A stretch of DNA of 64,000 nt from an uncultured Gemmatimonadales bacterium. Its GTDB lineage: Bacteria; Gemmatimonadota; Gemmatimonadetes; Gemmatimonadales; GWC2-71-9. The notes under the pieces are model-generated. The model was not told where the DNA came from. It saw nothing but the letters and a program-made list of their open reading frames with translations, and did not search any database. Shown in pieces: positions 42,912-61,830 of this stretch (the first letter of the stretch is position 1; each line of letters begins with the position of its first letter). The translations under genes were made by a program, and so were the position numbers. The stretch covers positions 576,001 to 640,000 of the forward strand of contig CAVOGR010000001.1 of the NCBI GenBank assembly GCA_963695555.1, read 5' to 3'.

Positions 42912-43040
42912 GGTGTCGTCATGAGGGTCCACGGCGGCGGCCCAGACGGGTGACTTCGCAACGATGGCGATCGCGCTTACATTATGCATTCGCCGCACCA
43001 GGCGCGGCATGACGATGCGTCAGGCGGAGGGGTTGAACGG

Positions 43041-43436
43041 ATGATAACTCGCGAAGAGGTTCAGTCCTACATCGACCGGCTCGAGGGCGGCGCCCTGTCG
43101 CCGAACGAGGTCAAGCCCGGGTTGTGGGTGGTGCAGACACCGGAAGAGACGGAGTTGGTGGTGCACTACGCGCCCCCTGTGGTGATCCTCCGGGTACGGG
43201 TCATGGAGCTTCCGGCCGAGGAGCCCCGACGAACCGAACTCTATCGGCAACTCCTCGAGTTCAATGCGAACGAGTTGGTCCATGGCTCCTACGGTCTGGA
43301 AGGGGACCACATCGTGCTCACCGATACGCTCGAGCTCGAGAACCTCGACTACGTCGAGTTCGAGTCCAGTTTTGATTCGATGACGCTGGCGCTAGCCTCG
43401 CACATGGGCGCGCTGGCAACGTTCCGCGAAAGGTAG
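43041..43436 (+). CDS. CesT/YbjN-like chaperone-fold protein
   Basis: LYRQLLEFNANELVHGSYGL, LTDTLELENLD; directly upstream of pspA. Confidence 0.7.
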   Translation: MITREEVQSYIDRLEGGALSPNEVKPGLWVVQTPEETELVVHYAPPVVILRVRVMELPAEEPRRTELYRQLLEFNANELVHGSYGLEGDHIVLTDTLELENLDYVEFESSFDSMTLALASHMGALATFRER

Positions 43437-43443
43437 CGAGCCC

Positions 43444-44211
43444 ATGGGGTTCTTTGACCGTATGTCCCAGTTGCTCCGGTCGAACATCAACGATCTCATC
43501 TCCCGGGCTGAGAATCCCGAGAAGATGCTGAATCAGATGATCGTGGACATGAAGGGCCAGCTGGCGAAGGCGAAGCAGCAGGTGGCCTCAGCGATCGCCG
43601 ACGAAAAGAAATTGCGGGCCGATGCCGAGAGCACGCGGAAGCAGGCGGAAGACTGGGAGCGCCGCGCCATGTTGGCCGTCCAAGAAGGTCGCGACGACCT
43701 GGCCAAGCAGGCCCTGATGCGGTACAACGAGCACCTGCAGGGGGCCCAGCAATTGCATGAGACCTGGCAGCGTCACAAGGTCGAAACCGAGGCGCTCAAG
43801 GTGTCCCTCCGGCAGTTGAACGACAAGATCGAAGAGGCAAAGCGCAAGAAGAACATCCTCATCGCGCGGTCGAAGCGAGCGGAGGCGCAGCAACGCATCC
43901 AGGAAACCATGTCCGGGCTGTCGGACAAGAGCGCCTTCGAATCCTTCGAGCGCATGGCCGAGAAGATCGAAGCGACCGAACGAAAGGCACTGGCGGCGGC
44001 GGAGCTGAACGCCGAGTTCGAGGACCACACGCTCGAGGACCAGTTCCGCGCCCTGGAATACCACGGCAACGAGGAGCAGCAGCTGCTCGAGTTGAAGCAG
44101 AAGATGGGGCTGTTGGCGCCGGGAGCCGACGAGGCCGCGAGACAACTCGGGGCCGGCGATGGGGACGTGGAGGACGCCGAAGTGGTCGAGGACGACGACG
44201 CCCCAGCCTGA
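43444..44211 (+). CDS. pspA: PspA/IM30 family protein
   Basis: MGFFDRMSQLLRSNIN..AENPEKML, GRDDLAKQAL, FERMAEKI; long coiled coil. Confidence 0.93.
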   Translation: MGFFDRMSQLLRSNINDLISRAENPEKMLNQMIVDMKGQLAKAKQQVASAIADEKKLRADAESTRKQAEDWERRAMLAVQEGRDDLAKQALMRYNEHLQGAQQLHETWQRHKVETEALKVSLRQLNDKIEEAKRKKNILIARSKRAEAQQRIQETMSGLSDKSAFESFERMAEKIEATERKALAAAELNAEFEDHTLEDQFRALEYHGNEEQQLLELKQKMGLLAPGADEAARQLGAGDGDVEDAEVVEDDDAPA

Positions 44212-45403: not shown

Positions 45404-45427
45404 CGCGCCCGGCCGGGGCCGGGCGCG
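45404..45427. terminator. GC hairpin between convergent genes
   Basis: CGCGCCCGGC-cggg-GCCGGGCGCG right after the DUF1611 stop. Confidence 0.5.
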
Positions 45428-45458: not shown

Positions 45459-46091
45459 TTACGGGCTCGGCGCCTTTGTTTTCTTCGGGCTTTTCTCCAC
45501 GGGATAGCCCCGTTCGAGCCAGTCGACCATTCCGCCGAAGACGAGGGCCGCGTCCATCTTGGCGCGTTGCATGACCGATGCCACATAGGCGCTCCTCACC
45601 TGGTCTCCACATACCAAGGCGAGCGGTTTGTCACTCTCGATCGCTTCCATCGCGGCCCACGGCTCGGTCCATTCCAGGCAGGTCGAGCCCGGGATGTGCC
45701 CGAACCGGAATTCGAAGCTTTCCCGCGTGTCCACGACGTGGTAGCGGTCGAGCGCATTCTTCAGCTCATCCACCGTCAAGAGAGGCAGGACCTCGGTGGG
45801 AAGCCCGTCGGCCTTCCACTGCTTGAGGCCGCCCTCGAGATAGCCCTCGACCGCAAAGCCGGCCTTGCTCAGGATTCCCATCGCGACCTTGGCGATCGGG
45901 TCGGGTTCGGCATGAATGAGGTACGTCAGGTCGTGTGGAAGGGACATCTCCGCGCGTTCGGCCAGATCGGCCCGATTGAACTGGAAGTTGACCGCGCCGG
46001 GCACGTGCTCCTTCGCGAACGGCTTGGGTGGTCGCATATCCAGGACGACGGCACCATTGGCGACCGCGTCTTGGACCTCGCCGGGCTTCAT
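45459..46091 (-). CDS. Tandem rhodanese-domain sulfurtransferase
   Basis: LDMR..HVPGA..LEGGLKQW; VDTR..GHIPGS..LVCGDQVRS..GGMVDW (active-site Cys only in domain 2). Confidence 0.88.
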   Translation of the reverse strand: MKPGEVQDAVANGAVVLDMRPPKPFAKEHVPGAVNFQFNRADLAERAEMSLPHDLTYLIHAEPDPIAKVAMGILSKAGFAVEGYLEGGLKQWKADGLPTEVLPLLTVDELKNALDRYHVVDTRESFEFRFGHIPGSTCLEWTEPWAAMEAIESDKPLALVCGDQVRSAYVASVMQRAKMDAALVFGGMVDWLERGYPVEKSPKKTKAPSP

Positions 46092-46888
46092 ACCGCTGCC
46101 TCCGTGATCTGGTCTTTGGAGATGAGGCCGAGGTTGTAGGACTTGATGCGCGCGTAATCGTCGGGGAACGGCTTGGCGGTCTCTTTGACAAACGCGGCGA
46201 ATTCGGCCGGCGTCTCTTTCCGCATGGCTAGGTTGAACCGCTTTTCGAAGGCAATGGTCGAGGCCGCTTTACCGCTCATGTTGACGCCACCGCAGGTAGA
46301 ACCGCCGTAATGGCAGGGGTAGACCTCAACGTGGTCGGGCAGGGCAAACAACTTGTCCTTCACGCTCCGATACAGCGTCTCCGCCCGGGTTGCTTCGTCC
46401 ATGACGTCCAGTGCCTGATCGCCCAGCAGGAGATCAGGCCGGCCGACGTCGCCCACGAACAAGGCATCACCGGTCAGGACGCACCAGGGTTCGTTCGAAC
46501 GGGCGGTGTCCGTGATCACAAACGACGTGTGCTCGGGGGTATGACCGGGCGTGTGGATCGTCGTGATCCGGACACCGCCGATCTCGAAGACCTGACCGTC
46601 CGTAAACGATGTGAAGCCGTACTTCACCAAATCGGCCGCCGACTCGTGCAGGTAATGCGGCACGTCGTTCATCTCGGCAAGCTCGCGGGCGCAGGAGATG
46701 TAGTCGGCGTGGATGTGGGTCTCGAAGACGCCGGTGATGGTGAGCCCGAGGTCGGCGGCTTCGAGCACGTACGACTCCGCGCCCATGTCGTCGATCGGAT
46801 CGATGATGACGGCCTCCTTGGCCCGCGGGCACCCGATCAGATACGATGCCTGCGCCAGGGGCTCGAACCGGAACTGCTTCATGATCAT
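46088..46888 (-). CDS. MBL-fold persulfide dioxygenase-like protein (Blh/CstB-type)
   Basis: LAQASYLIGC, ETHIHADY, TPGHTPEH, TGDALFVGDVGRPDL, YPCHYGGSTCG. Confidence 0.85.
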   Translation of the reverse strand: MIMKQFRFEPLAQASYLIGCPRAKEAVIIDPIDDMGAESYVLEAADLGLTITGVFETHIHADYISCARELAEMNDVPHYLHESAADLVKYGFTSFTDGQVFEIGGVRITTIHTPGHTPEHTSFVITDTARSNEPWCVLTGDALFVGDVGRPDLLLGDQALDVMDEATRAETLYRSVKDKLFALPDHVEVYPCHYGGSTCGGVNMSGKAASTIAFEKRFNLAMRKETPAEFAAFVKETAKPFPDDYARIKSYNLGLISKDQITEAAV

Positions 46889-46890
46889 GG

Positions 46891-47139
46891 TCAGTCCTCC
46901 TCTTCCACCTTACGCACGAAGAAGACAAACACGCCATCCTCCTCGTGCCATTCCAAGAGCTCGTTTCCGGTGTCCTCGGCCCAGGCCGGGAAGTCGGCGA
47001 TCGACCCGCGATCGGTGGCGAGAATCTTGAGGATCTGGCCGTCCGTGAGCGAGCGGATCTGCTTGCCGGCTTTGACCACCGGCATCGGGCACAAGAGGTT
47101 TCGCGCGTCGAGTACGACGTCTTCCTTGATATCAGCCAT
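46891..47139 (-). CDS. tusA: TusA family sulfur carrier
   Basis: LDARNLLCPMPV, ATDRGS..DFPAWA. Confidence 0.92.
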   Translation of the reverse strand: MADIKEDVVLDARNLLCPMPVVKAGKQIRSLTDGQILKILATDRGSIADFPAWAEDTGNELLEWHEEDGVFVFFVRKVEEED

Positions 47140-47166
47140 GACAGCCGCTCCTCCGAAGGGTCTGGT

Positions 47167-47727
47167 TCAAATGAACAGCGTCAGGTGCGACTTGCGCGCT
47201 TGCGACAAGAATGCAGCCGCGCCGCCGAATTCGACACCTTCGATAAAGTCGTCCTGGGAGTACCCGAATACATCCATGGTCATCTGACACGCGATGAGCT
47301 TCACGTCGGATTCGCGGGCCACGTCCAGGAGTTCTTGAATTGACGCCACGTGTTTCTTGGCGAACTTCGACTTCATCATGCTTGTCGCCATCGCGGTCAT
47401 GCCGGGGAGCGAGCTCACGATGTCCGGCATGGGGACCGGCATCGGCATGCCCGGATTGCCGACCGGCGAGACCTTGAGCTTCCGCTCAAAGTCCTTGTGA
47501 ATCACGTTCAGGCCGTAGAAGGTAAAGAAGATCGACACGTCCATGCCCGTCGCGGCCGCGGCCGTGGCCAGGATGAGCGGGGGATAGGCCCAGTCGAGCG
47601 TTCCCTTCGAGGAAATGAGACAGGCCTGCTTCTTGGCGGGGTCCTTCTTGAAGGCTCGCTGGATCTCTTCCCGGATGAGCTCGCGGATCGATTCTTCGGT
47701 CAACTTGTTGTCGTGCGTTTCCAGCAT
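47167..47727 (-). CDS. DsrE/DrsE-2 family sulfur relay protein
   Basis: KGTLDWAYPPLILA, IFFTFYGL, LIACQMTMD, GAAAFL, LFI. Confidence 0.88.
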   Translation of the reverse strand: MLETHDNKLTEESIRELIREEIQRAFKKDPAKKQACLISSKGTLDWAYPPLILATAAAATGMDVSIFFTFYGLNVIHKDFERKLKVSPVGNPGMPMPVPMPDIVSSLPGMTAMATSMMKSKFAKKHVASIQELLDVARESDVKLIACQMTMDVFGYSQDDFIEGVEFGGAAAFLSQARKSHLTLFI

Positions 47728-47918
47728 GGTCCCACCTGGTGAGAGTGGAGGAGTGGAGGATCAGGGCGGGGCAGCTGTGTGGCATGCCCAAATGGTCGTG
47801 GCGGATGCCGCGAAGGATAACAAGAGTATGTCACCATCAAGATATATTTCCCCGCCTCTCCTCAGAAGGAGCGCCTGAACTGCAGGCTGCCACGTCCGCT
47901 CAACCAGCCCGATTCAGC

Positions 47919-49409
47919 ATGGCCGACGTTATCGCCGGCGTGAGCGTTGCCATGGTGCTGATTCCCCAGTCCTTGGCCTTCGCCGAGCTGGCCGGGCTCC
48001 CGGCGTACTACGGGCTTTACGCCGCCATGCTCCCGCCGCTCGCGGCAGCGCTCTTCGCATCCTCTCCTTATCTGCAGACCGGCCCCACGGCCATGACCAG
48101 CCTGTTGACCCTGGGAGCGCTGGCGGTGCTCACCCAGCCATACGGTGCGGAGTACGTGAAGCTCGCCGCCTTGCTCGCGCTGGTGGTAGGGGTAGTCCGC
48201 ACCATCTTCGGACTCTTCCGAATCGGCTGGGTCGCCTATCTGATGTCGCGCCCAGTCCTCACCGGCTTTACCAATGCGGCGGCGATCCTGATCGTCGCCT
48301 CCCAGCTGCCCACCGCGCTCGGCGTCCAGGCCGAGGGAACCGGGATCCTGGGCAAGGCCTGGTGGGCCTTGTATCAGGTGCATCTGTGGGAACCGGCCGC
48401 ACTCCTCTTCAGCCTCGTGACGGTTGGCGTGGTCCTCGTCGGGCGCAGGCTCCATCCCCTCTTTCCCGGTGTCCTGGTCGCCGCCGCGATCGGGGTTGGC
48501 GTGAGCCTTCTGGCGGGCTATGCCGGACCAGTGGTGGGGTTGGTACCGTCGGGCTTGCCCCCGTTCTCGCTGGATCTTCCGTGGTCGTCGCTGCCGTCCC
48601 TGATTCTGCCCGGGGTCGTGATCGCCTTGGTAGGCTTCGCCGAGCCCGCAGCCATCGCGCGCATCTATGCGGCGCAGGACCGGCAGCGGTGGAGTCCGAA
48701 CCGGGAGTTCTTGAGTCAGGGTGTCGCGAACCTCGCATCGGGCTTCTCGGCCGCATTTCCGGTGGGCGGCTCGTTCTCGCGGAGTTCGGTCAACCGCATG
48801 GCGGGGGGAAAGACACGCTGGAGCGGTGCGGTGACGGGCCTGGTCGTGCTCGCGTTCCTGCCGGTAGCCGGCATGTTGGCGCCGCTTCCTCGCGCTGTGC
48901 TCGGCGGGATCATCATCGCCGCGGTGCTCAACCTGATCACGTTGCGCCAACTCGCCAAGCTGACGCGCTATTCGTTTCCCCAAGCCCTGGTCGCCTGGGT
49001 CACCTTCGCCGCTACGCTCATCCTCGCCCCGCGAATCGAACGGGCGGTGCTTCTGGGCGTTGGACTCGCGATCCTGATCCACCTCTGGAGAGAACTCTCG
49101 GTCCATATCGGGACGCATTACGAGGATGAGACACTCCGCCTGACGCCTCATGGGGTGCTGTTCTTCGCCTCGGCTCCGGGCCTCGAGGAGGCGCTGATCA
49201 CCCAGCTCGCAGCACATCCCGCGGCCACGCGGCTGGTCGTCGATCTCGCCCAGGTCGGCCGGATCGATTACTCGGGTGCGATTGCGCTGAAGAACGTCAT
49301 CGAGGAGGCGGAGCAAGCGGGCTTGGCCATTGAGATGGCCGGCATCCCACCCCAGGCTCGGCGCATCCTCACCAACGTCTTCGGCGCCGACTCACCTCTG
49401 TTCATCTGA
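47919..49409 (+). CDS. SulP family anion transporter with STAS domain (start may be further upstream)
   Basis: DVIAGVSVAMVLIPQSLAFA, GLYAA, GSFSRS; STAS LFFASA..IDYSG. Confidence 0.92.
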   Translation: MADVIAGVSVAMVLIPQSLAFAELAGLPAYYGLYAAMLPPLAAALFASSPYLQTGPTAMTSLLTLGALAVLTQPYGAEYVKLAALLALVVGVVRTIFGLFRIGWVAYLMSRPVLTGFTNAAAILIVASQLPTALGVQAEGTGILGKAWWALYQVHLWEPAALLFSLVTVGVVLVGRRLHPLFPGVLVAAAIGVGVSLLAGYAGPVVGLVPSGLPPFSLDLPWSSLPSLILPGVVIALVGFAEPAAIARIYAAQDRQRWSPNREFLSQGVANLASGFSAAFPVGGSFSRSSVNRMAGGKTRWSGAVTGLVVLAFLPVAGMLAPLPRAVLGGIIIAAVLNLITLRQLAKLTRYSFPQALVAWVTFAATLILAPRIERAVLLGVGLAILIHLWRELSVHIGTHYEDETLRLTPHGVLFFASAPGLEEALITQLAAHPAATRLVVDLAQVGRIDYSGAIALKNVIEEAEQAGLAIEMAGIPPQARRILTNVFGADSPLFI

Positions 49410-49629
49410 TCGGGTTTGGGTCTCGTCCTCTGATCCGGCTGGTCGCTGTGTCATGCTGCACGGATCCCGAGTCCTCAGCTGATCGGCGAGGTCGAACTCG
49501 GTCGAGCAACAGGTGTACCCACGGTTCACTCTTCTTGTGCCAGGCGCGGGCCGCGTTCATGTTTGGGCATCCCAAGCGGAATTGCCCTCGAACCAATCCC
49601 GGACAGCCGGGTCTCTCGGGAGCTTTGTG

Positions 49630-51168
49630 ATGCCGGAAGCAGCTGTTGCGGCACAGCGAGGTAATCCGACTCAGTGGGGCAAAGTCATCGATCACACCCG
49701 CTGCATCGGTTGTCACGCATGCAGCACCGCTTGCAAGTCTGAAAACGAAGTTCCCCTCTCCGTCAACCGAACCTACGTCAAGTACGTCGACGTCGGCACG
49801 TTTCCCGAGGCGCGTCGCGCCTTCCAGGTGACGCGGTGCAACCAGTGCGACGATCCTCCGTGTGTCACGGCCTGCCCCACGCGGGCGATGCATCAGCGCT
49901 CGGATGGGATCGTGGACTTCGACAAGTCGATCTGTATCGGCTGCAAGGCCTGCATCGCCGCCTGTCCCTACGACGCCATCTTCATCAATCCTGAGGATCA
50001 TTCCGCCGAAAAGTGCAATTTCTGCGCGCATCGCCTGGACGTGGGGCTCGAACCGGCCTGCGTGGTGGTGTGTCCGACGGAGGCGATCTTGATCGGCGAC
50101 CTGAACAGTCCGGGGTCGCGCGTGGCCGAGTTGGCGATGCGCGGGCCTGTGGCAGTACGGCGGCCCGAGAAAGCGACCCGCCCCAAGCTGTTCTACAATG
50201 GCGCGCACCAAGCGACGCTCGATCCCATCGCGGCCCGCCGGCCCGCCGGCGGGCTCTTCATGTGGAGCGAGCAGGCCGCCGGTTCCCACTCGGTGGTCTC
50301 CGGCCACCCCGCCGAGCCGAACAACTCGGCGGCCGCGCTCCTCGCCTACGATATTCCGCACACGATGCCGTGGGATTGGCGCGTCAGCCTGTACACGTGG
50401 ACCAAGGGCATCGCGGCGGGCGCCTATCTGGTGCCGTTCCTGCTCGTGGCGTTCAACATCATCCCCGCGTCGAGTGCACTGTGGCAGTGGGTGGCCCCTA
50501 TTATGGGAGGCGGCTTCCTCGCACTCACGGGGCTGCTCCTGATCTGGGACCTCGAGCACCCCGAGCGGTTCTACTATCTCTTCACTCACGCCCAGCCGAA
50601 GAGCTGGCTGGTGCGCGGCGGGATCGTCATCTCTGGCTACGCAGCCGTTCTCGCGGCCCACTTCGTTGGCAGCGTGATCTCGTTGCCACAGCTCCAATGG
50701 TTCCTGATGCTGGCCGGCGTGCCGCTCGCCCTCCTCACCGCGGTGTACACGGCTTACCTCTTTGCTCAGGCAAAGGCCAGGGATCTCTGGCAGAGCCCGC
50801 TTCTCGTGCCGCACCTGGCGGTCCAAGCCGTGCTGGCCGGTTCGGCCGCCGTGCTGCTGCTCGCACCGAGCCAGGCGCCTCGCGCCTTCATTCCGTTGCT
50901 CGCCGTGCTCGCCATCAGTAGCCTGATTCACCTCCTGTTTGTGCTGGGGGAAGGCACCATGACCCATCCCACGGCCCACGCCAAGCTGGCCGCGTGGGAG
51001 ATGATCCGCGGCCGCTACGCCCGGCTCTTCTGGGTTGGGGTGGCGCTCGTGGCCGGCGGGGTCCTGGCGCCGTGGATCGGGATGGCGGCCGCACCGCTGG
51101 CCCTGGCCGGACTGCTGGCCCACGAGCACGCCTACGTGCAGGCCGGGCAATCCGTCCCGCTCGCGTGA
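49630..51168 (+). CDS. Fusion of a 4x[4Fe-4S] subunit (NrfC/PsrB-like) and an NrfD/PsrC membrane anchor
   Basis: CIGCHACSTAC, CNQCDDPPC, CIGCKACIAAC, CNFC..CVVVC; then WDWRVSLY, DLEHPERF, SWLVRG, YTAYLF, and TM helices. Confidence 0.88.
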   Translation: MPEAAVAAQRGNPTQWGKVIDHTRCIGCHACSTACKSENEVPLSVNRTYVKYVDVGTFPEARRAFQVTRCNQCDDPPCVTACPTRAMHQRSDGIVDFDKSICIGCKACIAACPYDAIFINPEDHSAEKCNFCAHRLDVGLEPACVVVCPTEAILIGDLNSPGSRVAELAMRGPVAVRRPEKATRPKLFYNGAHQATLDPIAARRPAGGLFMWSEQAAGSHSVVSGHPAEPNNSAAALLAYDIPHTMPWDWRVSLYTWTKGIAAGAYLVPFLLVAFNIIPASSALWQWVAPIMGGGFLALTGLLLIWDLEHPERFYYLFTHAQPKSWLVRGGIVISGYAAVLAAHFVGSVISLPQLQWFLMLAGVPLALLTAVYTAYLFAQAKARDLWQSPLLVPHLAVQAVLAGSAAVLLLAPSQAPRAFIPLLAVLAISSLIHLLFVLGEGTMTHPTAHAKLAAWEMIRGRYARLFWVGVALVAGGVLAPWIGMAAAPLALAGLLAHEHAYVQAGQSVPLA

Positions 51169-51178
51169 GGATGTGACG

Positions 51179-54109
51179 ATGACGCCGAGAGAGCTAAGCG
51201 ACCGAGTCCGCGCGGCCAAGGAAGATGTCGAACGGCGCGGTGAGACCTTCTACCCCGGGCCAAGCCGGATTCACCTGGCGTCCTTCCCGCCGAAAGAGCG
51301 GTGGGACGATTGGGTGGAATTAGATTCGCGGGCCTGGCCCGAGCGGGTGGAACGCCGCTACAGCCTGGTCCCCACCACCTGCTTCAATTGTGAATCGGCC
51401 TGCGGACTGCTGGCCTACGTGGACAAGGAGACGCTTCAGGTACGGAAGTTCGAGGGCAATCCGGAGCATCCCGGCTCCCGGGGGCGGAACTGCGCCAAGG
51501 GTCCGGCCACCATTACCCAAGTGACCGACCCGGACCGCATCCTCGTGCCCCTCAAGCGCGCCGGCGCGCGGGGCGAGGGGAAGTGGGTGCAGGTCGGTTG
51601 GGATGAGGCGCTGGACGACATCGCCGGGCGGATTCGCCGGGCGATCCAGGAAGATCGCCACAACGAGGTGATGTACCACGTGGGTCGTCCCGGCGAGGAT
51701 GGGTTCACCGAACGGATCCTCGCCGCGTGGGGTGTGGACGGGCACAACTCCCACACCAATGTCTGTTCCTCCAACGGTCGGGCCGGATACCAGTTCTGGA
51801 TGGGCTACGACCGGCCGAGCCCGGATTTTGCCAATGCCAAGGTGATGGTGCTGGTGTCGGCGCACTTGGAGACCGGGCACTACTTCAACCCACACGCCCA
51901 GCGCGTCATCGAGGCCAAGAAGAACGGCGCTCGGCTGATCGTGTTCGACACCAGGCTGTCGAATACCGCGACCCACGCGGACCACTGGCTGGCTTCGTAT
52001 CCCGGCTCCGAGGCTGCGGTACTCTTGGCCGTGGCCAACTACCTCATTCAACACGATCTCTACAACCGAGAGTTTGTGCGGCAGTGGTGGAACTGGCACG
52101 AGTATCTGGCCTGCGAGCGCGACGATCTCGAGCCGTCATTCGACAACTTCGAGCGCGTGCTGAAGGAGCTGTATCGCGACTACACGTTCGAGTTTGCCGC
52201 TGCGGAATCCGGGCTCGATGCCTCGGTGATCGAAGACGTGGCGCAGGTGATCGCCACCGCCGGAACTCGGCTCGCCACGCACAACTGGCGTAGTGCCGCG
52301 GCCGGGAACGAAGGAGGGTGGCAGGTGTCCCGCACCCTGTTCTTGTTGAACGCCCTCATGGGCGCCGTGGCGAGCGAAGGCGGCACCTTCCCCAACGCCT
52401 GGAACAAGTTCGTCCCCAAGCCGATTCACACGCCGCCTCACCCGAAGACCTGGAACGAGCTGACGTGGCCGGTGGAATACCCGTTGGCGATGAACGAACT
52501 CTCCTTCCTCCTGCCCCATTTTCTGAAGGAGGGGAGAGGGCGAGTCGATGTGTACTTCACGCGGGTGTACAACCCGGTGTGGACCAATCCGGATGGATTT
52601 TCATGGATCGAAGTGCTCACCAACCCGGACCTGATCGGGCTGCACGTCGCTCTTACTCCCACGTGGAATGAAACGGCCTATTTCGCCGATTACGTGCTGC
52701 CGATGGGCCATAGCTCCGAGCGGCACGACACGCATTCGTACGAGACCCACGACGCGCAATGGATCGGATTCCGCCAGCCGGTATTGCGGACGCTGCGCGA
52801 ACGAATGGGCCAGCGGGTGGCCGATACGCGGGAGGTCAATCCGGGCGAAGTCTGGGAAGAGAACGAATTCTGGATCGACCTCACCTGGCGGATCGATCCC
52901 GATGGAGCGCTGGGTATCCGCCAGTTCGTTGCCTCTAAACAGCGCCCCGGCGAGAAGCTCTCGGTGGACGAGTACTACGCCTACGCCTTCGAGCACTCGG
53001 TTCCCGGACTGCCGGAGCGAGCCGCCGCCGAGGGCCTGAGCCCGCTCGACTACATGCGCCGCTACGGCGCGTTCGAGGTCGAGCGACGCGTCGGCCCCGT
53101 CTACACCTACGACGTTCCCCGCGATGACCTCCAGGACATCCGCGAGGACCAGTTCGGCCGGGTGTACACCAAGGCGCCCAAGCCGCCATCGCCCAATGTG
53201 GTGCCGCATCCGTCGCCCGAGTCTGACGCCGAAGGCCGCCGCCCCGTCGGGGTGACGGTAGACGGGAAGATTCTGCGCGGCTGGCCCACGCCAAGCGGTC
53301 GGCTCGAGTTCTACTCACGCACTCTGGCCGAATGGGGTTGGCCCGAAGCGGCCCTGCCCACCTATCTCAAAAGCCACATCCACCCGGACCACTTGGCCGC
53401 GGATCAGATGCCGCTGATCAGCACCTTCCGGCTCCCGGTCCACATCCACACCCGGAGCGCCAATGCCAAGTGGCTCGACGAGATTGCGCACACCAATCCA
53501 CTCTGGATCCATGCGTCCGATGCGAGCCGCCTCGGCCTCTCGACCGGCGACCTCGTTCGGGTGGAAACGGAGATCGGGCACTTCGTGGTCAAGGCCTGGG
53601 TGACCGAGGGGATCCGCCCCGGTGTGGTTGCCTGTAGTCACCACATGGGTCGGTGGAAACTCGGCGAGGCCGGGCAGCGGCAGCTCATGGCCACGGTGAA
53701 TTTGGATCACCGCGGTGCGAGCTGGGGTCTCACGCGCCGGCGCGGTGTCGAACCGTTCGCGTCGTCCGATCCGGATACCCTCAGAATCTGGTGGACCGAT
53801 GTCGGCGTACATCAAAACCTCACGTTCTCCGTGCATCCGGATCCCGTCTCCGGGCAGCACTGCTGGCATCAGGCCGTTCGCATCCGGAAGGCCGATCCCG
53901 GCGACGCCTATGGCGACATCGCCGTCGACACGGATCTGGCGCGTGACATGTACCGGCGCTGGTTGGAGAAGGCCCGTCCCGCTGATACCCATTCGCCGGA
54001 GGGTACCCGCCGGCCGTTCTGGTTGCTCCGGCCTCTGAAGCCCGCGAAGGAACACTTCCGCCTGCCGGAACCGACACACCGAGCGGGCGTCGGGCCAGGC
54101 TCCTCCTAG
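51179..54109 (+). CDS. Molybdopterin (DMSO reductase family) oxidoreductase catalytic subunit, no Tat signal
   Basis: TTCFNCESACG..NCAKG Fe-S motif, DPDRILVPLKR, NSHTNVCS, ETAYFADYVLP, HIHTRS, EGIRPGVV. Confidence 0.9.
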   Translation: MTPRELSDRVRAAKEDVERRGETFYPGPSRIHLASFPPKERWDDWVELDSRAWPERVERRYSLVPTTCFNCESACGLLAYVDKETLQVRKFEGNPEHPGSRGRNCAKGPATITQVTDPDRILVPLKRAGARGEGKWVQVGWDEALDDIAGRIRRAIQEDRHNEVMYHVGRPGEDGFTERILAAWGVDGHNSHTNVCSSNGRAGYQFWMGYDRPSPDFANAKVMVLVSAHLETGHYFNPHAQRVIEAKKNGARLIVFDTRLSNTATHADHWLASYPGSEAAVLLAVANYLIQHDLYNREFVRQWWNWHEYLACERDDLEPSFDNFERVLKELYRDYTFEFAAAESGLDASVIEDVAQVIATAGTRLATHNWRSAAAGNEGGWQVSRTLFLLNALMGAVASEGGTFPNAWNKFVPKPIHTPPHPKTWNELTWPVEYPLAMNELSFLLPHFLKEGRGRVDVYFTRVYNPVWTNPDGFSWIEVLTNPDLIGLHVALTPTWNETAYFADYVLPMGHSSERHDTHSYETHDAQWIGFRQPVLRTLRERMGQRVADTREVNPGEVWEENEFWIDLTWRIDPDGALGIRQFVASKQRPGEKLSVDEYYAYAFEHSVPGLPERAAAEGLSPLDYMRRYGAFEVERRVGPVYTYDVPRDDLQDIREDQFGRVYTKAPKPPSPNVVPHPSPESDAEGRRPVGVTVDGKILRGWPTPSGRLEFYSRTLAEWGWPEAALPTYLKSHIHPDHLAADQMPLISTFRLPVHIHTRSANAKWLDEIAHTNPLWIHASDASRLGLSTGDLVRVETEIGHFVVKAWVTEGIRPGVVACSHHMGRWKLGEAGQRQLMATVNLDHRGASWGLTRRRGVEPFASSDPDTLRIWWTDVGVHQNLTFSVHPDPVSGQHCWHQAVRIRKADPGDAYGDIAVDTDLARDMYRRWLEKARPADTHSPEGTRRPFWLLRPLKPAKEHFRLPEPTHRAGVGPGSS

Positions 54110-54112
54110 CGG

Positions 54113-54985
54113 ATGGAGTTACTTCGAGCGCTTGCCGTTCTTGCCGAGTCCCCCAGCGAAGAGTCCGCGGGACTTGCCCGGGTCCTGAGCCTCGATCGGC
54201 CGCCGAGCGCGGCCGAACACACCGACCTATTCGTCTTCCAGCTCGTCCCCTACGCCTCCGTGTACTTGGGCGCGGAGGGCATGCTGGGTGGTGAAGCCGA
54301 GGATCGGGTTCGGGGGTTCTGGCGGGCACTCGGCCATGCACCACCGACCGAACCCGATCATCTGACGGCCCTTCTCGGACTCTATGTACGTCTGGCTGAA
54401 CTCGAAGAGGCCGAGACCGATCTGACTCGCAAAGCGGCGCTGGGCAGGGCACGGGCCGCCCTCCTCTTCGAGCACCTCCTGAGTTGGCAGCCTGCGTTTC
54501 TCGAGAAGGTGATCGAAATTGGGCCGGGCCCTTTTCGAGACTGGGGGCGCCTGCTCAAGTCGGCACTGGTGGCGGAGGCCTCAGGCCTCGGAGTTCCCAC
54601 GGACCTGCCCCTCCATCTGCGCGAGGCCCCGGGACTTCCCGACGCGGAGCCTGCCAGCCTCGAGGAGCTGGTGTCGGCGTTCGTGGCTCCGGTCAGGTGC
54701 GGCATCATCCTCACGCGCACCGACCTCCAGCGGGCTGGGCGGGAAGTCGGACTCGGCGTGCGAGCCGGTGGGAGGCGCTTCGTGTTGGGGTCACTCCTGG
54801 AGCAGGATGCACCCGCTATGATGGAGTGGCTCGGGGCTGAGGCCGACCGCTGGGTCGGCTTGCATCTTGGCTATGCCGATTGCTTGGGCTCCATCGCTAC
54901 CTTCTGGGCCGAGCGGGCCCGCCGGACGGCCACGTTCGCCGAGCTGCTGCACCGGGTGGCAACGGAGAGTGTGAGTAACCCATGA
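54113..54985 (+). CDS. TorD/DmsD family molybdoenzyme chaperone
   Basis: PYASVYL, EPDHL, EHLLSW. Confidence 0.85.
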   Translation: MELLRALAVLAESPSEESAGLARVLSLDRPPSAAEHTDLFVFQLVPYASVYLGAEGMLGGEAEDRVRGFWRALGHAPPTEPDHLTALLGLYVRLAELEEAETDLTRKAALGRARAALLFEHLLSWQPAFLEKVIEIGPGPFRDWGRLLKSALVAEASGLGVPTDLPLHLREAPGLPDAEPASLEELVSAFVAPVRCGIILTRTDLQRAGREVGLGVRAGGRRFVLGSLLEQDAPAMMEWLGAEADRWVGLHLGYADCLGSIATFWAERARRTATFAELLHRVATESVSNP

Positions 54986-55013
54986 CTGGGTGTTCGAGTG
55001 AGGATCTGAATCA

Positions 55014-56096
55014 ATGAAGCAAGCAAGCATCATAGGCCTCGCGCTCGGCGTGCTCGTCGCTGGTCCCACGCCGCTTCCTGGACAAGCCGTCCCTCAGGTG
55101 GGTGGTGGCCCCGGGTGGGTGGTTCGTTCGGCAGCACACGTCGATCTCTGGTATCATGGCCTCGCGGTGGTGGGGTATGACGGGCTTGCGCCGCTCCCAC
55201 TCTACGCCCCCGACTACGCGGCGCACATCAAGAGCGCCAAGGAAGCCCAAGGACTGTATCCGACGACGCTCGATCGACTCCGATCCTACTTCCGGATCGC
55301 GTTCGCCACCGACAGCACGTTTGAGATTTTTCATTTCCTGCCGCTCTACTTCGGTTCGCCCGAACCCGAGCCTATGCTTGCTGCATTAGCTGCCGCCGCT
55401 CGCGGAGAGACGCGAGAAGAATTCGGAGCCAGGGTTCTGTCCGAGGTCCTGAAGAAGAAGAACCAGCGCGAGATCGCCGGCCAGTTCATCGCCGCCCTCG
55501 AAGAGGAGTGGCGGGTGTTTCTCCGGGCGCACCGTGAGGCGGAGTCACCGCGACGGGATGCCTATCTGGCGGCGGTCGAGCGGCAATGGCAGGAGCGCAT
55601 GGAGCCAGCCCTCGAAGGTTGGCTCATGGATCGTCGTCTCGACCGAGGCGTGGTGATCGCCTCGCCGGCAATAGGGCCGGAGGGCCGAATTTTCCTGGGC
55701 GAGCCGGATGATCCGGGCGACAATGTCGTTGCCGTCGGCATGCCGCTCGCACTGGATGACGTGGAGGTTGTGCTGTTTGCCGCGGTCCGCGAGCTCTGTT
55801 ATCCCATCGCCAGTCGCGAAGTGGCGCGGCAGGGCGTGCCTGGCAACGACCGCGTGACCGCCGAGCGCGTCAGCAGCCGGGCCGCGGTACGATGCGGGGC
55901 AATGCTGCTCGATGTCCGGGCGCCGGAGCTGGCCACCCGGTACCGGGACGCCTATGTTCGGGCGGCCAAGCTTGATCCGGCGCGGGTGACGTTCGAAAAC
56001 GCCTTCCCCGTGGATTCCCAGCTTCTCAAGGACGTGCGGCGGGAGTTGCGGCTGCCGAACATCAGGGAGGACGGAGGAGTAATGAGTAAGGAGTGA
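55014..56096 (+). CDS. Secreted hypothetical protein
   Basis: 360-aa ORF with a signal-peptide-like N terminus; no recognised motif. Confidence 0.65.
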   Translation: MKQASIIGLALGVLVAGPTPLPGQAVPQVGGGPGWVVRSAAHVDLWYHGLAVVGYDGLAPLPLYAPDYAAHIKSAKEAQGLYPTTLDRLRSYFRIAFATDSTFEIFHFLPLYFGSPEPEPMLAALAAAARGETREEFGARVLSEVLKKKNQREIAGQFIAALEEEWRVFLRAHREAESPRRDAYLAAVERQWQERMEPALEGWLMDRRLDRGVVIASPAIGPEGRIFLGEPDDPGDNVVAVGMPLALDDVEVVLFAAVRELCYPIASREVARQGVPGNDRVTAERVSSRAAVRCGAMLLDVRAPELATRYRDAYVRAAKLDPARVTFENAFPVDSQLLKDVRRELRLPNIREDGGVMSKE

Positions 56097-56156
56097 GCTC
56101 GCGGGACCACGAGTTCCCAGTTCCCGACTGTCCAACCGACGTATCTTTCGTTCCAC

Positions 56157-56188
56157 TCCCGACTTCCCGACTTCCCGACTTCCCGACT
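56157..56188. repeat. Octamer tandem repeat (TCCCGACT)x4 with flanking degenerate copies
   Basis: Directly visible upstream of cysS; further copies at ~56122 and ~56205. Confidence 0.9.
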
Positions 56189-56213
56189 ACCTGACTAACC
56201 GGCTTCCCGACTC

Positions 56214-57765
56214 ATGTCCCTCACCCTCTACAACACGCTCACTCGCAGGCTCGAGCCGTTCGAACCGCTCGAGCCCGGCCGAGTATCGCTCTACACCTGT
56301 GGCCCGACCGTCTGGAATTTTGCCCACATCGGGAACTTCAGGACATTCCTGTTCGAGGATCTGCTCCGGCGGTGGCTCGAGGCGAGCGGGTACGACGTCT
56401 ATCACATCATGAACGTGACCGACGTGGACGATCGTACCATCAACGCCGCTGCGGCTGCTGGAACATCGCTGCGTGAGCATGTCCAGCCGTTTATCGACGC
56501 CTTCTATGCCGACCGTGACTACTTGAGAATCCGTCCCGCCAACGAATACCCCCGCGCCACCGAGTTCATCGCGCCGATGATACGGTTAGTGCAGGGCCTC
56601 ATCGACAAGGGGCACGCGTACCGAGGGGACGACGGCTCGGTCTATTTCACGATCGCGAGCTTCCCGGCCTACGGCCGCCTGTCGCAGCTGGACCGCCAAC
56701 AGCTCCAGGCCGGCGCCGGTTCGGGCGGCAGCCGGACGGGGGTCGACACCGACGAGTACGCCAAGGAAGACGCCCGGGACTTCGCGCTCTGGAAGGCCGC
56801 CCGCCCCACGGACGAGCAGGTGGGAGCCGCCTGGGATGCGCCCTTCGGACGTGGTCGCCCAGGGTGGCATCTCGAGTGCTCGGCCATGGCGCTCGAACTG
56901 GTCGGGCAGCAGTACGGGGTGGATGTGCTCGATATCCATGCCGGCGGGGTGGACCTGATCTTTCCGCATCATGAGGACGAGATCGCCCAGGCCTGCGCCT
57001 ACACCGGGCAGGAAGACTTCGCCCGGTATTGGCTCCACGGCGAGTTCCTCAACGTGCGCGGCACCAAGATGTCCAAGCGCTTCGGCAACATTCTGACAAC
57101 GCGAGATCTCAGTGAGGAGGGAGTGGGCAGCGGGGCGGTGAGATTGTTGGTCTTCCAGACCCACTACCGCCAGCGGCTCGATTTGACCGACCAGGCGCTC
57201 GATGCGGCGCGGGAGGGCTCGCGGCGGCTCGGCGAGTTCGGCCGGAAGCTGGCTGAGGCCTCGGAGCGGAGCGGGAAAGGGCCACGAGCCGTTCGAGGAG
57301 GCTGCCGGCCGGTTCGGCGACGCATTCAAGTCCGCGCTGGATGAGGACCTCAACGCGCCGCGGGCGGTGGCCGCGCTATTCGACTTCGCCAGCGAGGGGA
57401 ATCGGCTGCTGGATGAGGGGGTCCGGCCCGGCCCAAGGGCACTGGGGGCGTGGGCGCTGGCCGACGCGGCGCCGGACTGCGCCCAGGCGGTGGAAAGGGT
57501 CAGCCTGGCTGGGTCCGACGCCGCAGGCGGCTGAGTCCGCCACGCGCTATCCAGCCCACCCGCCGAGCCGCCGACCGGAACGGCCGAGGCAGCCGACTGG
57601 GCCCGAAAATGGGCCCTGGTGCGGCTCGAGCGCAAAAAGGCCCGCGACTTCGCGGAGGCGGACCGGATCCGGGACCTGCTCCGTGAGCACGGATTCGAGG
57701 TCCGGGATACCAAGGACGGCGGGGTCGAGGTGGTTCGGGCGGGGCTGATTGCCCCCCGGCCCTGA
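56214..57765 (+). CDS. cysS: Cysteine--tRNA ligase (frameshifted in 3' part)
   Basis: YTCGPTV, HIGN, DFALWK, GRPGWHLECSAM, FPHHEDE, KMSKR, DEDLNAP, DFAEADRIRD. Confidence 0.95.
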
Positions 57766-58196: not shown

Positions 58197-58269
<73 letters not shown>

Positions 58270-58397
58270 TGGAGGAGGCGGATCGGTCGGCATGGCAGTT
58301 CGTGATGACCGCCGGACCGCCGGAGGCGGTCGCCGGGGATCGGCTGGGAACCGCCGGACCGCCGCAACTAGAAACCAGACGCAAGGGAGCACTGGTC

Positions 58398-59614
<1,217 letters not shown>

Positions 59615-59638
59615 GGAGTCGGGAGTAGAGGAGCCAAC

Positions 59639-59790
59639 ATGCCGCGCGACAAGATGATCCTGGAGTGCACCGACTGCAAGAGTCGGAACTACTTCACGAC
59701 AAGAACAAGCGGAAGCACCCGGAGCGGGTGGAGTGGAAGAAGTTCTGTCCCCGGTGCGGCACGCACCGCGCCCACAAGGAGTCGAAGTAG
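59639..59790 (+). CDS. rpmG: 50S ribosomal protein L33 (Zn-binding CxxC form; one frameshift)
   Basis: [18 protein letters not shown]...[25 protein letters not shown]. Confidence 0.9.
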
Positions 59791-59792
59791 CC

Positions 59793-60046
59793 ATGGCCAA
59801 AGGTGAAGGTCGCGCGCGGCGATGCCGCGGTTGCCCAGGGCAACGCCCTCATGCGCTCCGCGACTTCCTCGCGGCGGTGCGGGCCGAGATCGGCAAGGTC
59901 ACCTGGCCGACGCGGGACGAGCTGGTCGAGGCGACGCGGGTGATTCATCCTGCTTCGCCGTGCTCCTCGGCGTCGCTGATCGGACTGCTCGACTGGCTGC
60001 TCCAGAAGATCCTGATCGACGGGGTCGCGGCGATCTGCCGCGGTGA
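59793..60046 (+). CDS. secE: Preprotein translocase SecE (frameshifted)
   Basis: [24 protein letters not shown]; located between rpmG and nusG. Confidence 0.88.
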
Positions 60047-60051
60047 TCGCC

Positions 60052-60597
60052 ATGGAGTACCGCTGGTACGCGATCCAGACGACGGCGGGCCACGAGAACA
60101 AGGTCCGGGCGCTGCTCGAGCGCCGCATCGCGGACGACCCGCGGCCGGAGGAGGAGAAGCTGATCCGCCAGGCCTGGTCCCGACGCAGGAAGTCGTGGAG
60201 ATCAAGAACGGCAAGAAGGTCACGGTCGAGCGGAAGCTGTATCCGGGCTACGTGCTCGTCGAGATGGTGATGAGCCAGGAAGCGCTCAGCACGTGGTCAA
60301 CAGCATCCAGGGCGTGATCAAGTTCGTCGGGACCGGCTGGACGCCGCAGGCGCTCCGGCAGGAGGAGGTCAACCGGCTGCTCGGCATCGTCGAGGAGACG
60401 GCCGAGGACGAGCGCCGAAGGAGGAGATCCCGTTCCTGGTCGGCCAGGTCGTGGAGATCATCGAAGGTCCGTTCTCGGACTTCAGCGGCACGGTCGAGGA
60501 AGTGCTCCCCGACAAGGGGAAGGTGAAGGTGTCGGTCAGCCTGTTCGGGCGGCCGACGACGGTCGAGTTGGATTACCTGCAGTTGCGAGGCCATTGA
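60052..60597 (+). CDS. nusG: Transcription termination/antitermination factor NusG (frameshifted)
   Basis: WYAIQTTAGHENKV, LYPGYVLVEM, KOW GPFSDFSGTV, SLFGRPTTVEL. Confidence 0.95.
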
Positions 60598-60721
60598 GCC
60601 GACGCGCAGGGTGCGCGCCGGTGACGTATAGACGACGGTGGGCCGGGTGGCCCCCCGCGACCGCGCGGGTGAACGCGGGAGTCGACGGCGCACCAGATGC
60701 CCCGACGTTACGAGGAGTAAC

Positions 60722-61146
60722 ATGGCGAAGAAAGTCACGGCCGTCGTCAAGCTGCAGTGCCCGGCTGGCGCGGCGAACCCGGCGCCGCCCGTGGGCACGG
60801 CGCTCGGTCCGCACGGCGTCAACATCATGGATTTCTGCAAGCAGTTCAACGCGCAGACCCAGACCCAGGCGGGCATGGTGATTCCGGTCGTGATCACGAT
60901 CTATGCCGATCGCACGTTCACCTTCATCACCAAGACGCCGCCGGCGCCGAATCTGCTGCTCAAGGAAGCCGGAATCGAGAAGGGAAGCGGGCAGCCGAAT
61001 CGCGACAAGGTCGGCAAGGTGACGCGCGCCCAGCTCGGAAGATCGCCGAGATCAAGATGGACGACCTCAATGCGACCGACATCGATTGCGCCATGCGGAT
61101 GATCGCCGGGACGGCGCGGTCGATGGGCCTGGAGGTGAAGGACTGA
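60722..61146 (+). CDS. rplK: 50S ribosomal protein L11
   Basis: [42 protein letters not shown]. Confidence 0.96.
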
Positions 61147-61830
61147 TGGCCGCACGGGCAAGCAATTCACGGCGGCGCTGGCCGGGTGGATCGAGCCAAG
61201 GTCTACTCGCCGCCGAGGCCGTCGACCTGGTCAAGGCGGCGTCCTTCGCCAAGTTCGACGAGACCGTGGACGTTGCGGTCCGGCTCGGCGTCGATCCGCG
61301 GCACGCCGACCAGGTCGTCCGCGGCACCGTGGTGCTGCCGCACGGCACCGGCAAGACGGTCCGGGTGCTGGTCATCGCCCAGGGCGACAAGGCCAAGGAC
61401 GCGGAGGCGGCCGGCGCCGACTTCGTCGGTGTCGAGTACGTCCAGAAGATCAAGGACGGCTGGCTCGAGTGCGACGTGATCGTCGCGACGCCGGACGTGA
61501 TGGGCCAGGTCGGCCAGCTGGGCCGGATTCTCGGCCCCCGCGGGCTGATGCCGAATCCGAAGGCGGGCACGGTCACGATGGACGTGGCCAGGCGGTCAGC
61601 GAGATCAAGGCCGGCAAGATCGAGTTCCGGGTGGACAAGACCGGCAACCTGCACGCGCCGATCGGCAAGGTGTCGTTTGGGGCGCCCAGTTGGTGGAGAA
61701 CCTGTCGCCGTTCATGGACACGATCGTCCGGGCGAAGCCGGCGGCGGCCAAGGGCACCTACGTCCGGTCGGCCACGGTCTCGAGCACGATGGGGCCCGGC
61801 GTGCGACTGGATACGGCGGGGTACCGATGA
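61146..61830 (+). CDS. rplA: 50S ribosomal protein L1 (frameshifted)
   Basis: [40 protein letters not shown]. Confidence 0.96.

Follow-up and report, generated by a model that had tools for sequence, protein, structure and literature searches.

The window analysed here is a stretch of 64,000 nucleotides from an uncultured Gemmatimonadales bacterium of soil or sediment (assembly GCA_963695555.1, contig CAVOGR010000001.1, positions 576,001 to 640,000 of the forward strand), and it contains an island of eight genes in which a set for the trafficking and oxidation of sulfane sulfur stands back to back with an anion permease and a membrane-bound molybdenum (Mo) enzyme. A sequence-only reading of this island had placed all eight genes and proposed that they make up a pathway from sulfane sulfur through sulfite to sulfate. 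Searches with Pfam and NCBIfam confirm every one of these genes, with its position and its domains, and also the divergent layout of a minus-strand sulfur gene set and a plus-strand set for the permease and the Mo enzyme. The features of the island are as follows.

45404..45427, minus strand: terminator-like GC hairpin with a stem of 10 G-C pairs, 32 nt 3′ of the rhodanese stop codon (consensus match only)
45459..46091, minus strand: tandem rhodanese, 210 aa (Pfam, two stretches)
46088..46888, minus strand: CstB-type (type III-like) persulfide dioxygenase (PDO) domain, 266 aa (Pfam Lactamase_B)
46891..47139, minus strand: TusA-family sulfur carrier, 82 aa, with Cys17 in a CPMP motif (PF01206, 80.5 bits)
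47167..47727, minus strand: DsrE2-type sulfur carrier, 186 aa (Pfam DrsE_2, 180.5 bits)
47728..47918, no strand: divergent intergenic region, presumed from its position to hold promoters and operators
about 47919..49409, plus strand: SulP-family anion permease with a STAS domain (Sulfate_transp 273 bits, STAS 42 bits)
49630..51168, plus strand: fused Fer4_11 and NrfD electron-transfer and anchor subunit, called BC here, 512 aa (Pfam, NCBIfam)
51179..54109, plus strand: Mo/W-bisPGD catalytic subunit, called A or MoA here, 976 aa (Molybdop_Fe4S4, Molybdopterin, Molydop_binding)
54113..54985, plus strand: TorD/NarJ-family assembly chaperone, 290 aa (Nitrate_red_del, 48.4 bits)

The four minus-strand genes are tightly packed, and the starts of the two gene sets are separated by at most 191 bp (47727 to 47919). 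No convincing palindrome or operator and no sigma-70-like match was found in the intergenic region (47728-47918). The start of the SulP gene is uncertain, being either ATG 47919 or an in-frame codon further 5′ in a frame that is open from 47739, and the protein scores 287 with TIGR00815 against a cut-off of 380.

The Mo enzyme is encoded by two genes. The A subunit most likely starts at ATG 51179, 11 nt past the stop codon of BC, and no twin-arginine motif with a hydrophobic stretch behind it is seen at its N-terminus (residues 1-65); likewise, no leader or signal peptide is found in the BC protein (ATG 49630). The N-terminal domain of BC has four groups of cysteines for four [4Fe-4S] clusters, and its C-terminal NrfD/PsrC-type domain has eight predicted transmembrane (TM) helices; the loops on the side of the iron-sulfur (FeS) domain hold 2, 2-3 and 4 Lys or Arg residues, those on the opposite side 0, 0 and 1. 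As neither A nor BC carries an export signal, the FeS and Mo parts lie on the cytoplasmic face, and the positive-inside count agrees with it. The cytoplasmic orientation assumed for the enzyme in the sequence-only reading, without a leader of the twin-arginine translocation (Tat) or Sec type on either subunit, thus holds.

The A subunit belongs to the Mo/W-bisPGD (DMSO reductase) superfamily by its domains, by its FS0 motif (C68, C71, C75 and C105) and by Cys196, the predicted Mo ligand, whose counterparts are Cys173, the ligand to Mo in Thermus PsrA, and Cys193 in ArrA (numbering verified on the alignments). The motif DGHN[ST]HTN[IV]CS[SA]..R around it is invariant in 16 of the 17 rows of the family alignment, the seventeenth being a truncated open reading frame (ORF). 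The same 16 rows share Arg170, His192, Thr193, Cys196 and Arg201, and these align with R165, H189, S190, C193 and K198 of ArrA, of which R165, H189, S190 and K198 are, we assume, the residues that bind the oxyanion. Such an invariant pocket hints at an oxyanion as the substrate. None of the curated NCBIfam models claims the A subunit, which scores 209 with PhsA against a cut-off of 694 (209.4 bits with model NF012032), 173 with DmsA against 778, 117 with ArrA against 1600 and 101 with TtrA against 1750; BC scores 181 with the TtrB model against a cut-off of 416, so that the protein pair falls outside the TtrABC equivalogs. Among solved structures, the A subunit scores highest with PsrA (138 bits), followed by ArrA (124 bits).

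Relatives of the A subunit are numerous. In a word-indexed search all 8000 scored candidates were significant, the best 120 being 926-990 aa long and 76-98% identical, and the family is present in at least 665 species-level genomes (at least 674 stretches, 665 of them confirmed, with one genome per species). A second homologue search seeded with another protein (P0124) gave the same family. Among the matches listed, the closest relatives are metagenome-assembled genomes (MAGs) labelled Gemmatimonadota or Gemmatimonadales, with 80-81% identity. Cultured carriers were found in a plasmid collection: Thermomicrobium roseum, on its megaplasmid (62% identity), and Rhodococcus jostii RHA1, on pRHL3 (56% identity; genes RHA1_RS43840 and RHA1_RS43835), to which the same collection adds the haloarchaea Natrinema and Halomicrococcus (51-52% identity). 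In all four, B and C are fused, and neither A nor BC has a leader. The names given to these proteins are generic, either "molybdopterin-dependent oxidoreductase" or a COG name (IMG/JGI names being generic as well); among the 20 nearest representatives none is named SoeA and one is called "thiosulfate/polysulfide reductase chain A". Only generic clusters were found for the A subunit in the ESM Atlas.

A clear Tat leader (RRxF[LV]K) is present in 14 of these 20 nearest representative proteins, in a relative from Azoarcus and in PhsA, and two Tat-bearing relatives (P0128 and P0192) carry the same active-site motif as the Tat-less family. In a FastTree phylogeny of 42 rows, for which SH-like support is the only measure, the 18 Tat-less rows form one clade (support 95), within which a tight core of 13 rows spans eight phyla (support 100), while PhsA and TtrA stand in the other major branch, TtrA on a long one. 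Of the phylogeny that the sequence-only reading had called for, with SoeA, SreA, PsrA/PhsA, TtrA and ArrA, this covers PhsA and TtrA, and the A subunit separates from both. The relative from Azoarcus sp. KH32C lies on plasmid pAZKH (locus L087, 5245-10405); it is 33% identical, and its genes keep the order B, NrfD, A, TorD without any fusion. Next to them are arsB and a gene for a PhnD-type binding protein, accompanied by genes for a sensor kinase and a sigma-54 regulator. The relative is possibly a periplasmic, arsenic-linked enzyme of an uncharacterised kind, and a similar set is present on a Sulfurovum mangrovi plasmid (locus L088). Candidates for SoeA raised by tblastn against plasmids turned out to be other enzymes (a 758-aa protein in Ralstonia, a soluble enzyme in Rhizobium and a nitrate-assimilation enzyme in Sinorhizobium) or, in Bradyrhizobium, an unannotated stretch.

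The genes around the A subunit were compared in the loci of the best 80 of the at least 665 relatives (69-81% identity across about ten phyla), many of which end at contig edges. They include members of Acidobacteriota (many of them Pyrinomonadaceae), Gemmatimonadota, Actinomycetota, Planctomycetota, Chloroflexota, Dormibacterota, Verrucomicrobiota and Bacillota. When the proteins of the window were searched by tblastn, homologues of BC were found in 67 of the 80 loci, upstream of A, those of TorD in 49, downstream of A, and those of PDO, rhodanese, DsrE2, TusA and SulP in 26, 23, 14, 11 and 8, respectively; the SulP homologues, 52-71% identical, stand beside the Mo genes. DUF1611, a gene of the window outside the island, was found in none. 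With queries from cultured carriers added to those from the window, 37 of the 80 loci have at least one of PDO, rhodanese, TusA, DsrE2 and SulP no more than 8 kb from the Mo subunit; in 35 loci the sequence extends for at least 6 kb in both directions, and a sulfur gene is near in 18 of these. The 3.57-Mb host genome has only about five sites with a homologue of any of the five sulfur proteins, a density from which the chance expectation is estimated at about 3% per 19-kb span. The clustering of the sulfur genes with the Mo subunit is therefore no chance event. The sequence-only reading had named a lack of association between homologues and sulfur genes as the result that would speak against it; this is not what is seen, as linkage of the Mo clade to pdo, rhodanese, tusA and dsrE2 recurs, in varying arrangements, across several phyla.

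The arrangement of these genes varies. A fused PDO-rhodanese of 474 aa lies directly downstream of A in 19 loci. R. jostii RHA1 has dsrE-tusA-BC-A-mrp facing two metallo-β-lactamase (MBL) genes, two DUF202 genes, an ArsR gene and a thioredoxin gene; in T. roseum, BC and A stand behind a CsoR-type "metal-sensitive" regulator; and Halomicrococcus has rhodanese, TauE/SafE, BC, A, mobA and an anion permease. ArsR-family regulators are near the Mo genes in 25 of the 80 loci, and a homologue of sulfide:quinone oxidoreductase (SQR) in one. A molybdate/sulfate-type ABC transporter is a neighbour in 5 loci and a class-V aminotransferase in 4, and small genes of the mobile type recur as well; clustering of the neighbouring ORFs of the 80 loci revealed no functional theme across phyla besides sulfur trafficking and oxidation. 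In loci of Pyrinomonadaceae (L016, L027, L029 and others), small genes are inserted between BC and A, which are there 0.7-2.4 kb apart, and these include a PemK/MazF-type toxin with a small partner, DinB and DUF1905/OmdA. In RHA1 (L086, 11799-12968) and Natrinema (L118, 10966-12126), an Mrp/NBP35-family ATPase follows A in place of the TorD-like chaperone; no homologue of this ATPase was found in the 80 MAG loci.

The proteins of the minus-strand set have the features expected of a persulfide module. Residues 1-252 of PDO align with residues 4-257 of 3tp9_A (158.7 bits), and residues 9-199 of the rhodanese align with residues 282-473 of the same structure; as the two proteins match successive parts of 3tp9, they represent a split version of a CstB-type fusion. 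The rhodanese domains that are fused to the C-terminus of a CstB-type protein are thus encoded here by a separate gene. PDO also scores 153.2 bits with 3r2u_A, presumably the CstB of Staphylococcus aureus, and only 60.8 bits with ETHE1 (4chl). Its fold is that of the MBL proteins, and the metal motif is intact (HIHADY, of the HxHxD type). The active-site loop of the rhodanese (CGDQVRS, with C161) is present in the C-terminal domain only, the N-terminal domain having no active-site Cys. The CPMP motif of TusA is intact, and its score of 48.4 with the NCBIfam equivalog, against a cut-off of 78, makes it a member of the family and not an orthologue of the E. coli type. DsrE2 reaches its equivalog barely (NF047629, 211.1 bits against a cut-off of 210).

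A similar composition is known from the cst operon of S. aureus, which encodes CstR, CstA, CstB, SQR and TauE. The island PDO is closest to CstB-type MBL-rhodanese proteins; in both systems a PDO is accompanied by rhodanese, TusA and DsrE modules and by an anion exporter, and regulators of the CsoR or ArsR type are present in relatives of the island. Unlike in the cst operon, PDO and rhodanese are split into two genes in the island, the carriers are separate small proteins, and the cluster has a quinone-linked Mo enzyme and no SQR.

The remaining parts of a sulfide oxidation route were sought elsewhere in the host assembly (3.57 Mb in 14 contigs, 87% complete). A type II SQR, scoring 153 bits with human SQOR, is encoded on contig 7 (183361-185715; labelled L103 and L112) beside a DsrE-like gene. 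A second PDO, on contig 2 (340642-342057), is 40-42% identical to the island PDO and is fused with a rhodanese, a type that is common in the sample of the phylum described below. Besides the A subunit, the proteins of the bis-PGD type are a formate dehydrogenase, ActB of alternative complex III and NuoG. No SUOX or SorA was found in this 87% complete assembly, in which the sole match to PF00174 belongs to MsrPQ and PF03404, the dimerisation domain of SUOX, was not found. Since SQR and PDOs are present and SUOX/SorA was not found, sulfite oxidation is the only step from sulfide through sulfane sulfur and sulfite to sulfate that has no recognised enzyme in this genome. The MsrP gene of the MsrPQ locus (contig 3, 41149-41629; L091 and L092) matches its family in two frames, and so does an NDH-2-like gene (contig 2, 474396-475347; L097 and L100), which suggests frameshifts in the assembly.

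Co-occurrence was examined in 151 genomes of the phylum including the host, the overlaps being worked out by hand; as the genomes are related to one another, no statistics are claimed. The MoA family is present in 30 of them (E ≤ 1e-100), patchily by taxonomic family (11 of 71 genomes in f1 and 14 of 16 in f7), CstB-type PDO in 89 (E ≤ 1e-30; 87 of 149 when two MoA-negative genomes flagged as unpublished, G057 and G097, are left aside) and PF03404 in 63. A close orthologue of the split PDO of the island (74-100% identity) occurs in 6 of the 151 genomes, and in all six it is on the same contig as MoA, at a distance of 1.7-7.3 kb.

From these features we infer, as the most economical reading, a route from sulfane sulfur to sulfite, sulfate and export. 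The island would serve as a cytoplasmic disposal route for sulfane sulfur, in which persulfide sulfur, supplied either by the type II SQR encoded elsewhere in the genome or by the breakdown of cysteine, would be carried on DsrE2, TusA and rhodanese. The CstB-type PDO would then oxidise the carried sulfur with O2 to sulfite, while some thiosulfate may arise via the rhodanese. The two-gene Mo enzyme would oxidise sulfite to sulfate at its cytoplasmic Mo-bisPGD site, from which electrons would travel by way of FS0 and the four [4Fe-4S] clusters to the fused NrfD domain and its quinone, and SulP would export the anion. That the Mo enzyme is a cytoplasmic sulfite:quinone oxidoreductase downstream of the split CstB-type PDO, with SulP exporting the anion, has in our judgement about an even chance of being correct. 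It is favoured by the lack of a Tat or Sec leader together with the positive-inside count, by the linkage, in differing arrangements, to genes that make sulfite, by the gap it would fill in a genome with an SQR and two PDOs in which SUOX/SorA was not found, by the invariant active-site residues aligning with those of ArrA, and by the ArsR-family and CsoR-type regulators near the genes. The expression of the T. roseum genes in aerobic culture, described below, and two precedents, SoeABC (PMC8076601, cited passages) and a proposal for green sulfur bacteria (PMC3906813 and PMC6338057, cited passages), also speak for it.

How does this enzyme compare with the systems already described? SoeABC is, in the cited passages of PMC8076601, a sulfite:quinone oxidoreductase of the complex iron-sulfur molybdoenzyme (CISM) type in which SoeAB lies on the N-side and SoeC is inverted; SoeC was found only in Proteobacteria, three Clostridia and Aquificae. 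Compared by description with SoeABC of Allochromatium vinosum and Aquifex aeolicus, the enzyme of the island is likewise a membrane CISM with an NrfD-type anchor in a context of sulfur oxidation, and its catalytic and FeS parts likewise have no export signal and face the cytoplasm (PMC8076601, cited passages). In contrast, SoeABC consists of three subunits encoded in the order soeA, soeB, soeC, whereas B and C form one polypeptide in the island and the order is BC, A, TorD; moreover, the island family occurs in Gemmatimonadota, Acidobacteriota, Actinomycetota, Chloroflexota, haloarchaea and others. The term "SoeABC-type" used in the sequence-only reading is thus not borne out by the fusion and the gene order: the enzyme is SoeABC-like in orientation and context and lies outside the architectural definition of SoeABC, to which it was compared by description.

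A match in architecture is found in the type of complex called PSRLC3. According to the cited passages of Wright et al. (PMC3906813), a psrBC fusion, the order psrBCA and a Tat-less PsrA occur in green sulfur bacteria, Marine Group A, Marine Group II, Haladaptatus and Caldilinea, and oxidation of sulfite has been proposed for the cytoplasmic complex of green sulfur bacteria (PMC3906813 and PMC6338057, cited passages). The island shows the same fusion, BC before A, and a PsrA-like subunit without a Tat leader, and it shares with PSRLC3 the function proposed for it in the cited passages of these two papers. The shared architecture and the haloarchaeal and Chloroflexota members suggest that both belong to the same clade. 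The two differ in that the partner in the island is an O2-dependent PDO module, not a Dsr system. The layout and the idea of sulfite oxidation are therefore already in print for green sulfur bacteria and marine groups, and the island is a further example. Of the earlier claim that the island would assign a function to an uncharacterised Mo-enzyme clade, the description of the clade stands as far as experiments are concerned; the sulfite idea itself is not new, having been printed years earlier (PMC3906813 and PMC6338057, cited passages). As judged from search results and cited passages, no literature on SoeABC and Acidobacteria or on SoeA and Gemmatimonadota was found to describe the family there, and a paper on SAR202 and one on Mycobacterium contain nothing on this enzyme.

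The PsrABC of Thermus thermophilus (PDB 2VPW-2VPZ) and PhsABC share with the island enzyme a Cys ligand to Mo (C173 and C196, respectively, in PsrA and island A), a four-cluster FeS subunit and an NrfD anchor of eight TM helices. They differ in that Psr and Phs are exported by the Tat pathway and face the periplasm (the leader of PhsA is seen), whereas island A has no Tat leader; in addition, their A subunits have about 760 aa as compared with 976 aa, and PhsA is found in a different major branch of the tree. With TtrABC the island has the gene order B-C-A in common.

Some evidence on expression is available from T. roseum, for which individual rows of supplement file 2 of PMC6776052 give transcript levels in aerobic pure culture as values normalised by the trimmed mean of M-values (TMM). 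The gene order in these rows (regulator, 4Fe-4S protein, "formate dehydrogenase", hypothetical, archease) agrees with that of the annotated locus. From exponential to stationary phase, A (trd_A0628) goes from 3474 to 3500 (ratio 1.01), BC (trd_A0629) from 1165 to 1822 (ratio 1.56) and the regulator (trd_A0630) from 199 to 452 (ratio 2.27). The enzyme is thus made in an aerobe growing in air, without co-induction with the sHdr cluster, which goes up 45-fold in the same experiment (PMC6776052). Transcription in aerobic culture fits poorly with an anaerobic respiratory reductase. Contigs of four estuary RNA libraries, 95-99% alike, span BC, A, TorD and beyond (49666-57000), which is consistent with transcription, although such libraries can hold DNA. 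These contigs give no cover at 45.7-49.6 kb, where the minus-strand genes and SulP lie, and being contigs only they are uninformative on expression or absence there. One of them, from run X1, is 96-99% alike over BC and A and diverges from the window upstream of 49666, so that a close relative may have a different left-hand neighbour of the Mo genes.

Several results weigh against sulfite oxidation or fail to support it. By score, the nearest characterised relatives of the A subunit would be enzymes of the Psr/Phs type. CstB-type enzymes are reported to release thiosulfate instead of free sulfite. None of the sulfur genes is present in 17 of the 35 well-flanked loci. In the phylum sample, CstB-type PDO is found in 21 of the 30 MoA-positive and 68 of the 121 MoA-negative genomes, and PF03404, in 19 of 30 and 44 of 121, respectively, is not complementary to MoA; in the family of the host the latter counts are 2 of 12 and 22 of 60. 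MoA is thus neither tightly tied to CstB-type PDO nor complementary to SUOX, and these tests are neutral on sulfite as the substrate. Finally, A of T. roseum is not induced (1.01) while sHdr rises 45-fold.

Given these results, what else could the Mo enzyme do? The sequence-only reading had named a reductive role as its alternative, and an inward-facing persulfide, polysulfide or thiosulfate reductase of the Psr/Phs/Sre kind, in which TusA, DsrE2 and rhodanese would feed the Mo site and quinol would reduce sulfane sulfur to sulfide, would suit the scores with PhsA (209 bits) and PsrA (138 bits) and the Cys ligand to Mo, as in PsrA. Rhodanese-type carriers do feed enzymes of the Psr/Sre type, namely Sud in Wolinella and SbdP in Aquifex. 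However, reduction of sulfane sulfur by quinol is energetically uphill, judged by the redox potentials, and a reductase would undo the work of the O2-dependent PDO encoded in the same cluster. Among the known carriers of the family are obligate or predominant aerobes, and T. roseum transcribes its copies when grown in air; furthermore, the scores lie far under the PhsA and TtrA cut-offs, and the A subunit stands apart from both in the tree. We consider such a reductase improbable. The reverse of a Psr reaction, that is, a quinone reductase oxidising sulfide or persulfide and feeding DsrE2, TusA and rhodanese for PDO, would place the Mo enzyme in the slot of SQR in the staphylococcal cluster (cstA, cstB, sqr, tauE), to which the island is parallel in composition with the Mo enzyme for SQR, and an SQR homologue is near the Mo genes in only one of the 80 loci. 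On the other hand, the genome already holds a type II SQR, by a DsrE-like gene elsewhere, the invariant pocket of Arg, His and Arg would seem to fit an oxyanion, and we know of no physiological precedent for such an enzyme; this reading appears to us very improbable.

A different substrate altogether (thiosulfate, tetrathionate, arsenite, selenite or an organic S- or N-oxide), with the sulfur neighbours reflecting co-regulation or the supply of sulfur for the cofactor, has somewhat more to recommend it, given the 17 well-flanked loci without sulfur neighbours, the neutral co-occurrence across genomes, the arsB and PhnD-type binding protein, sensor kinase and sigma-54 regulator beside the Tat-bearing Azoarcus relative, and the molybdate/sulfate-type ABC transporter genes that neighbour the Mo genes in five loci. 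Against it stands the fact that sulfur trafficking and oxidation is the only neighbour theme across phyla, with TauE/SafE in a haloarchaeon included, and we rate it as unlikely, though the likeliest of the rivals to oxidation of sulfite.

The surroundings of the island consist of housekeeping or unrelated genes in DNA with a G+C content of about 0.61-0.68 across the window. Upstream lie uvrA, an S9 peptidase, pspA and DUF1611, and just before the island (42984-44211) a CesT_Tir_1-family protein is followed by PspA/IM30. Downstream lies cysS, followed by the region of EF-Tu, secE, nusG, ribosomal proteins and rpoB. Between the TorD-like gene and cysS there is a plus-strand ORF of 360 aa (55014-56096), which is crossed by an RNA-library contig; no Pfam family and no homologue among the loci of the best 80 relatives was found for it, and it appears to lie outside the system. 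At 58212-62279, where the GC skew is unusually high, several housekeeping genes seem to be fused or broken up in the plain list of ORFs: EF-Tu is represented by a 203-aa ORF with GTP_EFTU and, behind it, a distinct 222-aa ORF that matches no Pfam family, a 194-aa ORF matches both SecE and NusG, and a 397-aa ORF matches both ribosomal L1 and L10. These may be frameshifts, assembly indels or an artefact of calling the longest ORF.

Returning to sulfite oxidation, its wider consequence would concern the family as a whole. Many heterotrophs have PDOs without a recognised sulfite oxidiser, and in a sediment metagenome, according to the cited passages of PMC12345210, pdo is abundant, SoeABC was undetected and SUOX/SorA is scarce despite fast biological oxidation of sulfite. 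It is a tentative proposal, to which we assign rather less than an even chance, that, in aerobic heterotrophs of soil and sediment as well as in haloarchaea, the Tat-less, BC-fused family serves as the main sulfite:quinone oxidoreductase of the cytoplasm, in place of SoeABC, SorAB or SUOX. If it is true, the family would be the missing last step after PDO, sHdr or the cleavage of sulfonates, and electrons from sulfite would enter the quinone pool. Standard annotation overlooks the family, giving it generic names only, and if its members oxidise sulfite, surveys of sulfur-cycle genes miss a major step as well as an extra input of electrons to respiration. Culturable carriers such as R. jostii RHA1 and T. 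roseum make this function directly testable.

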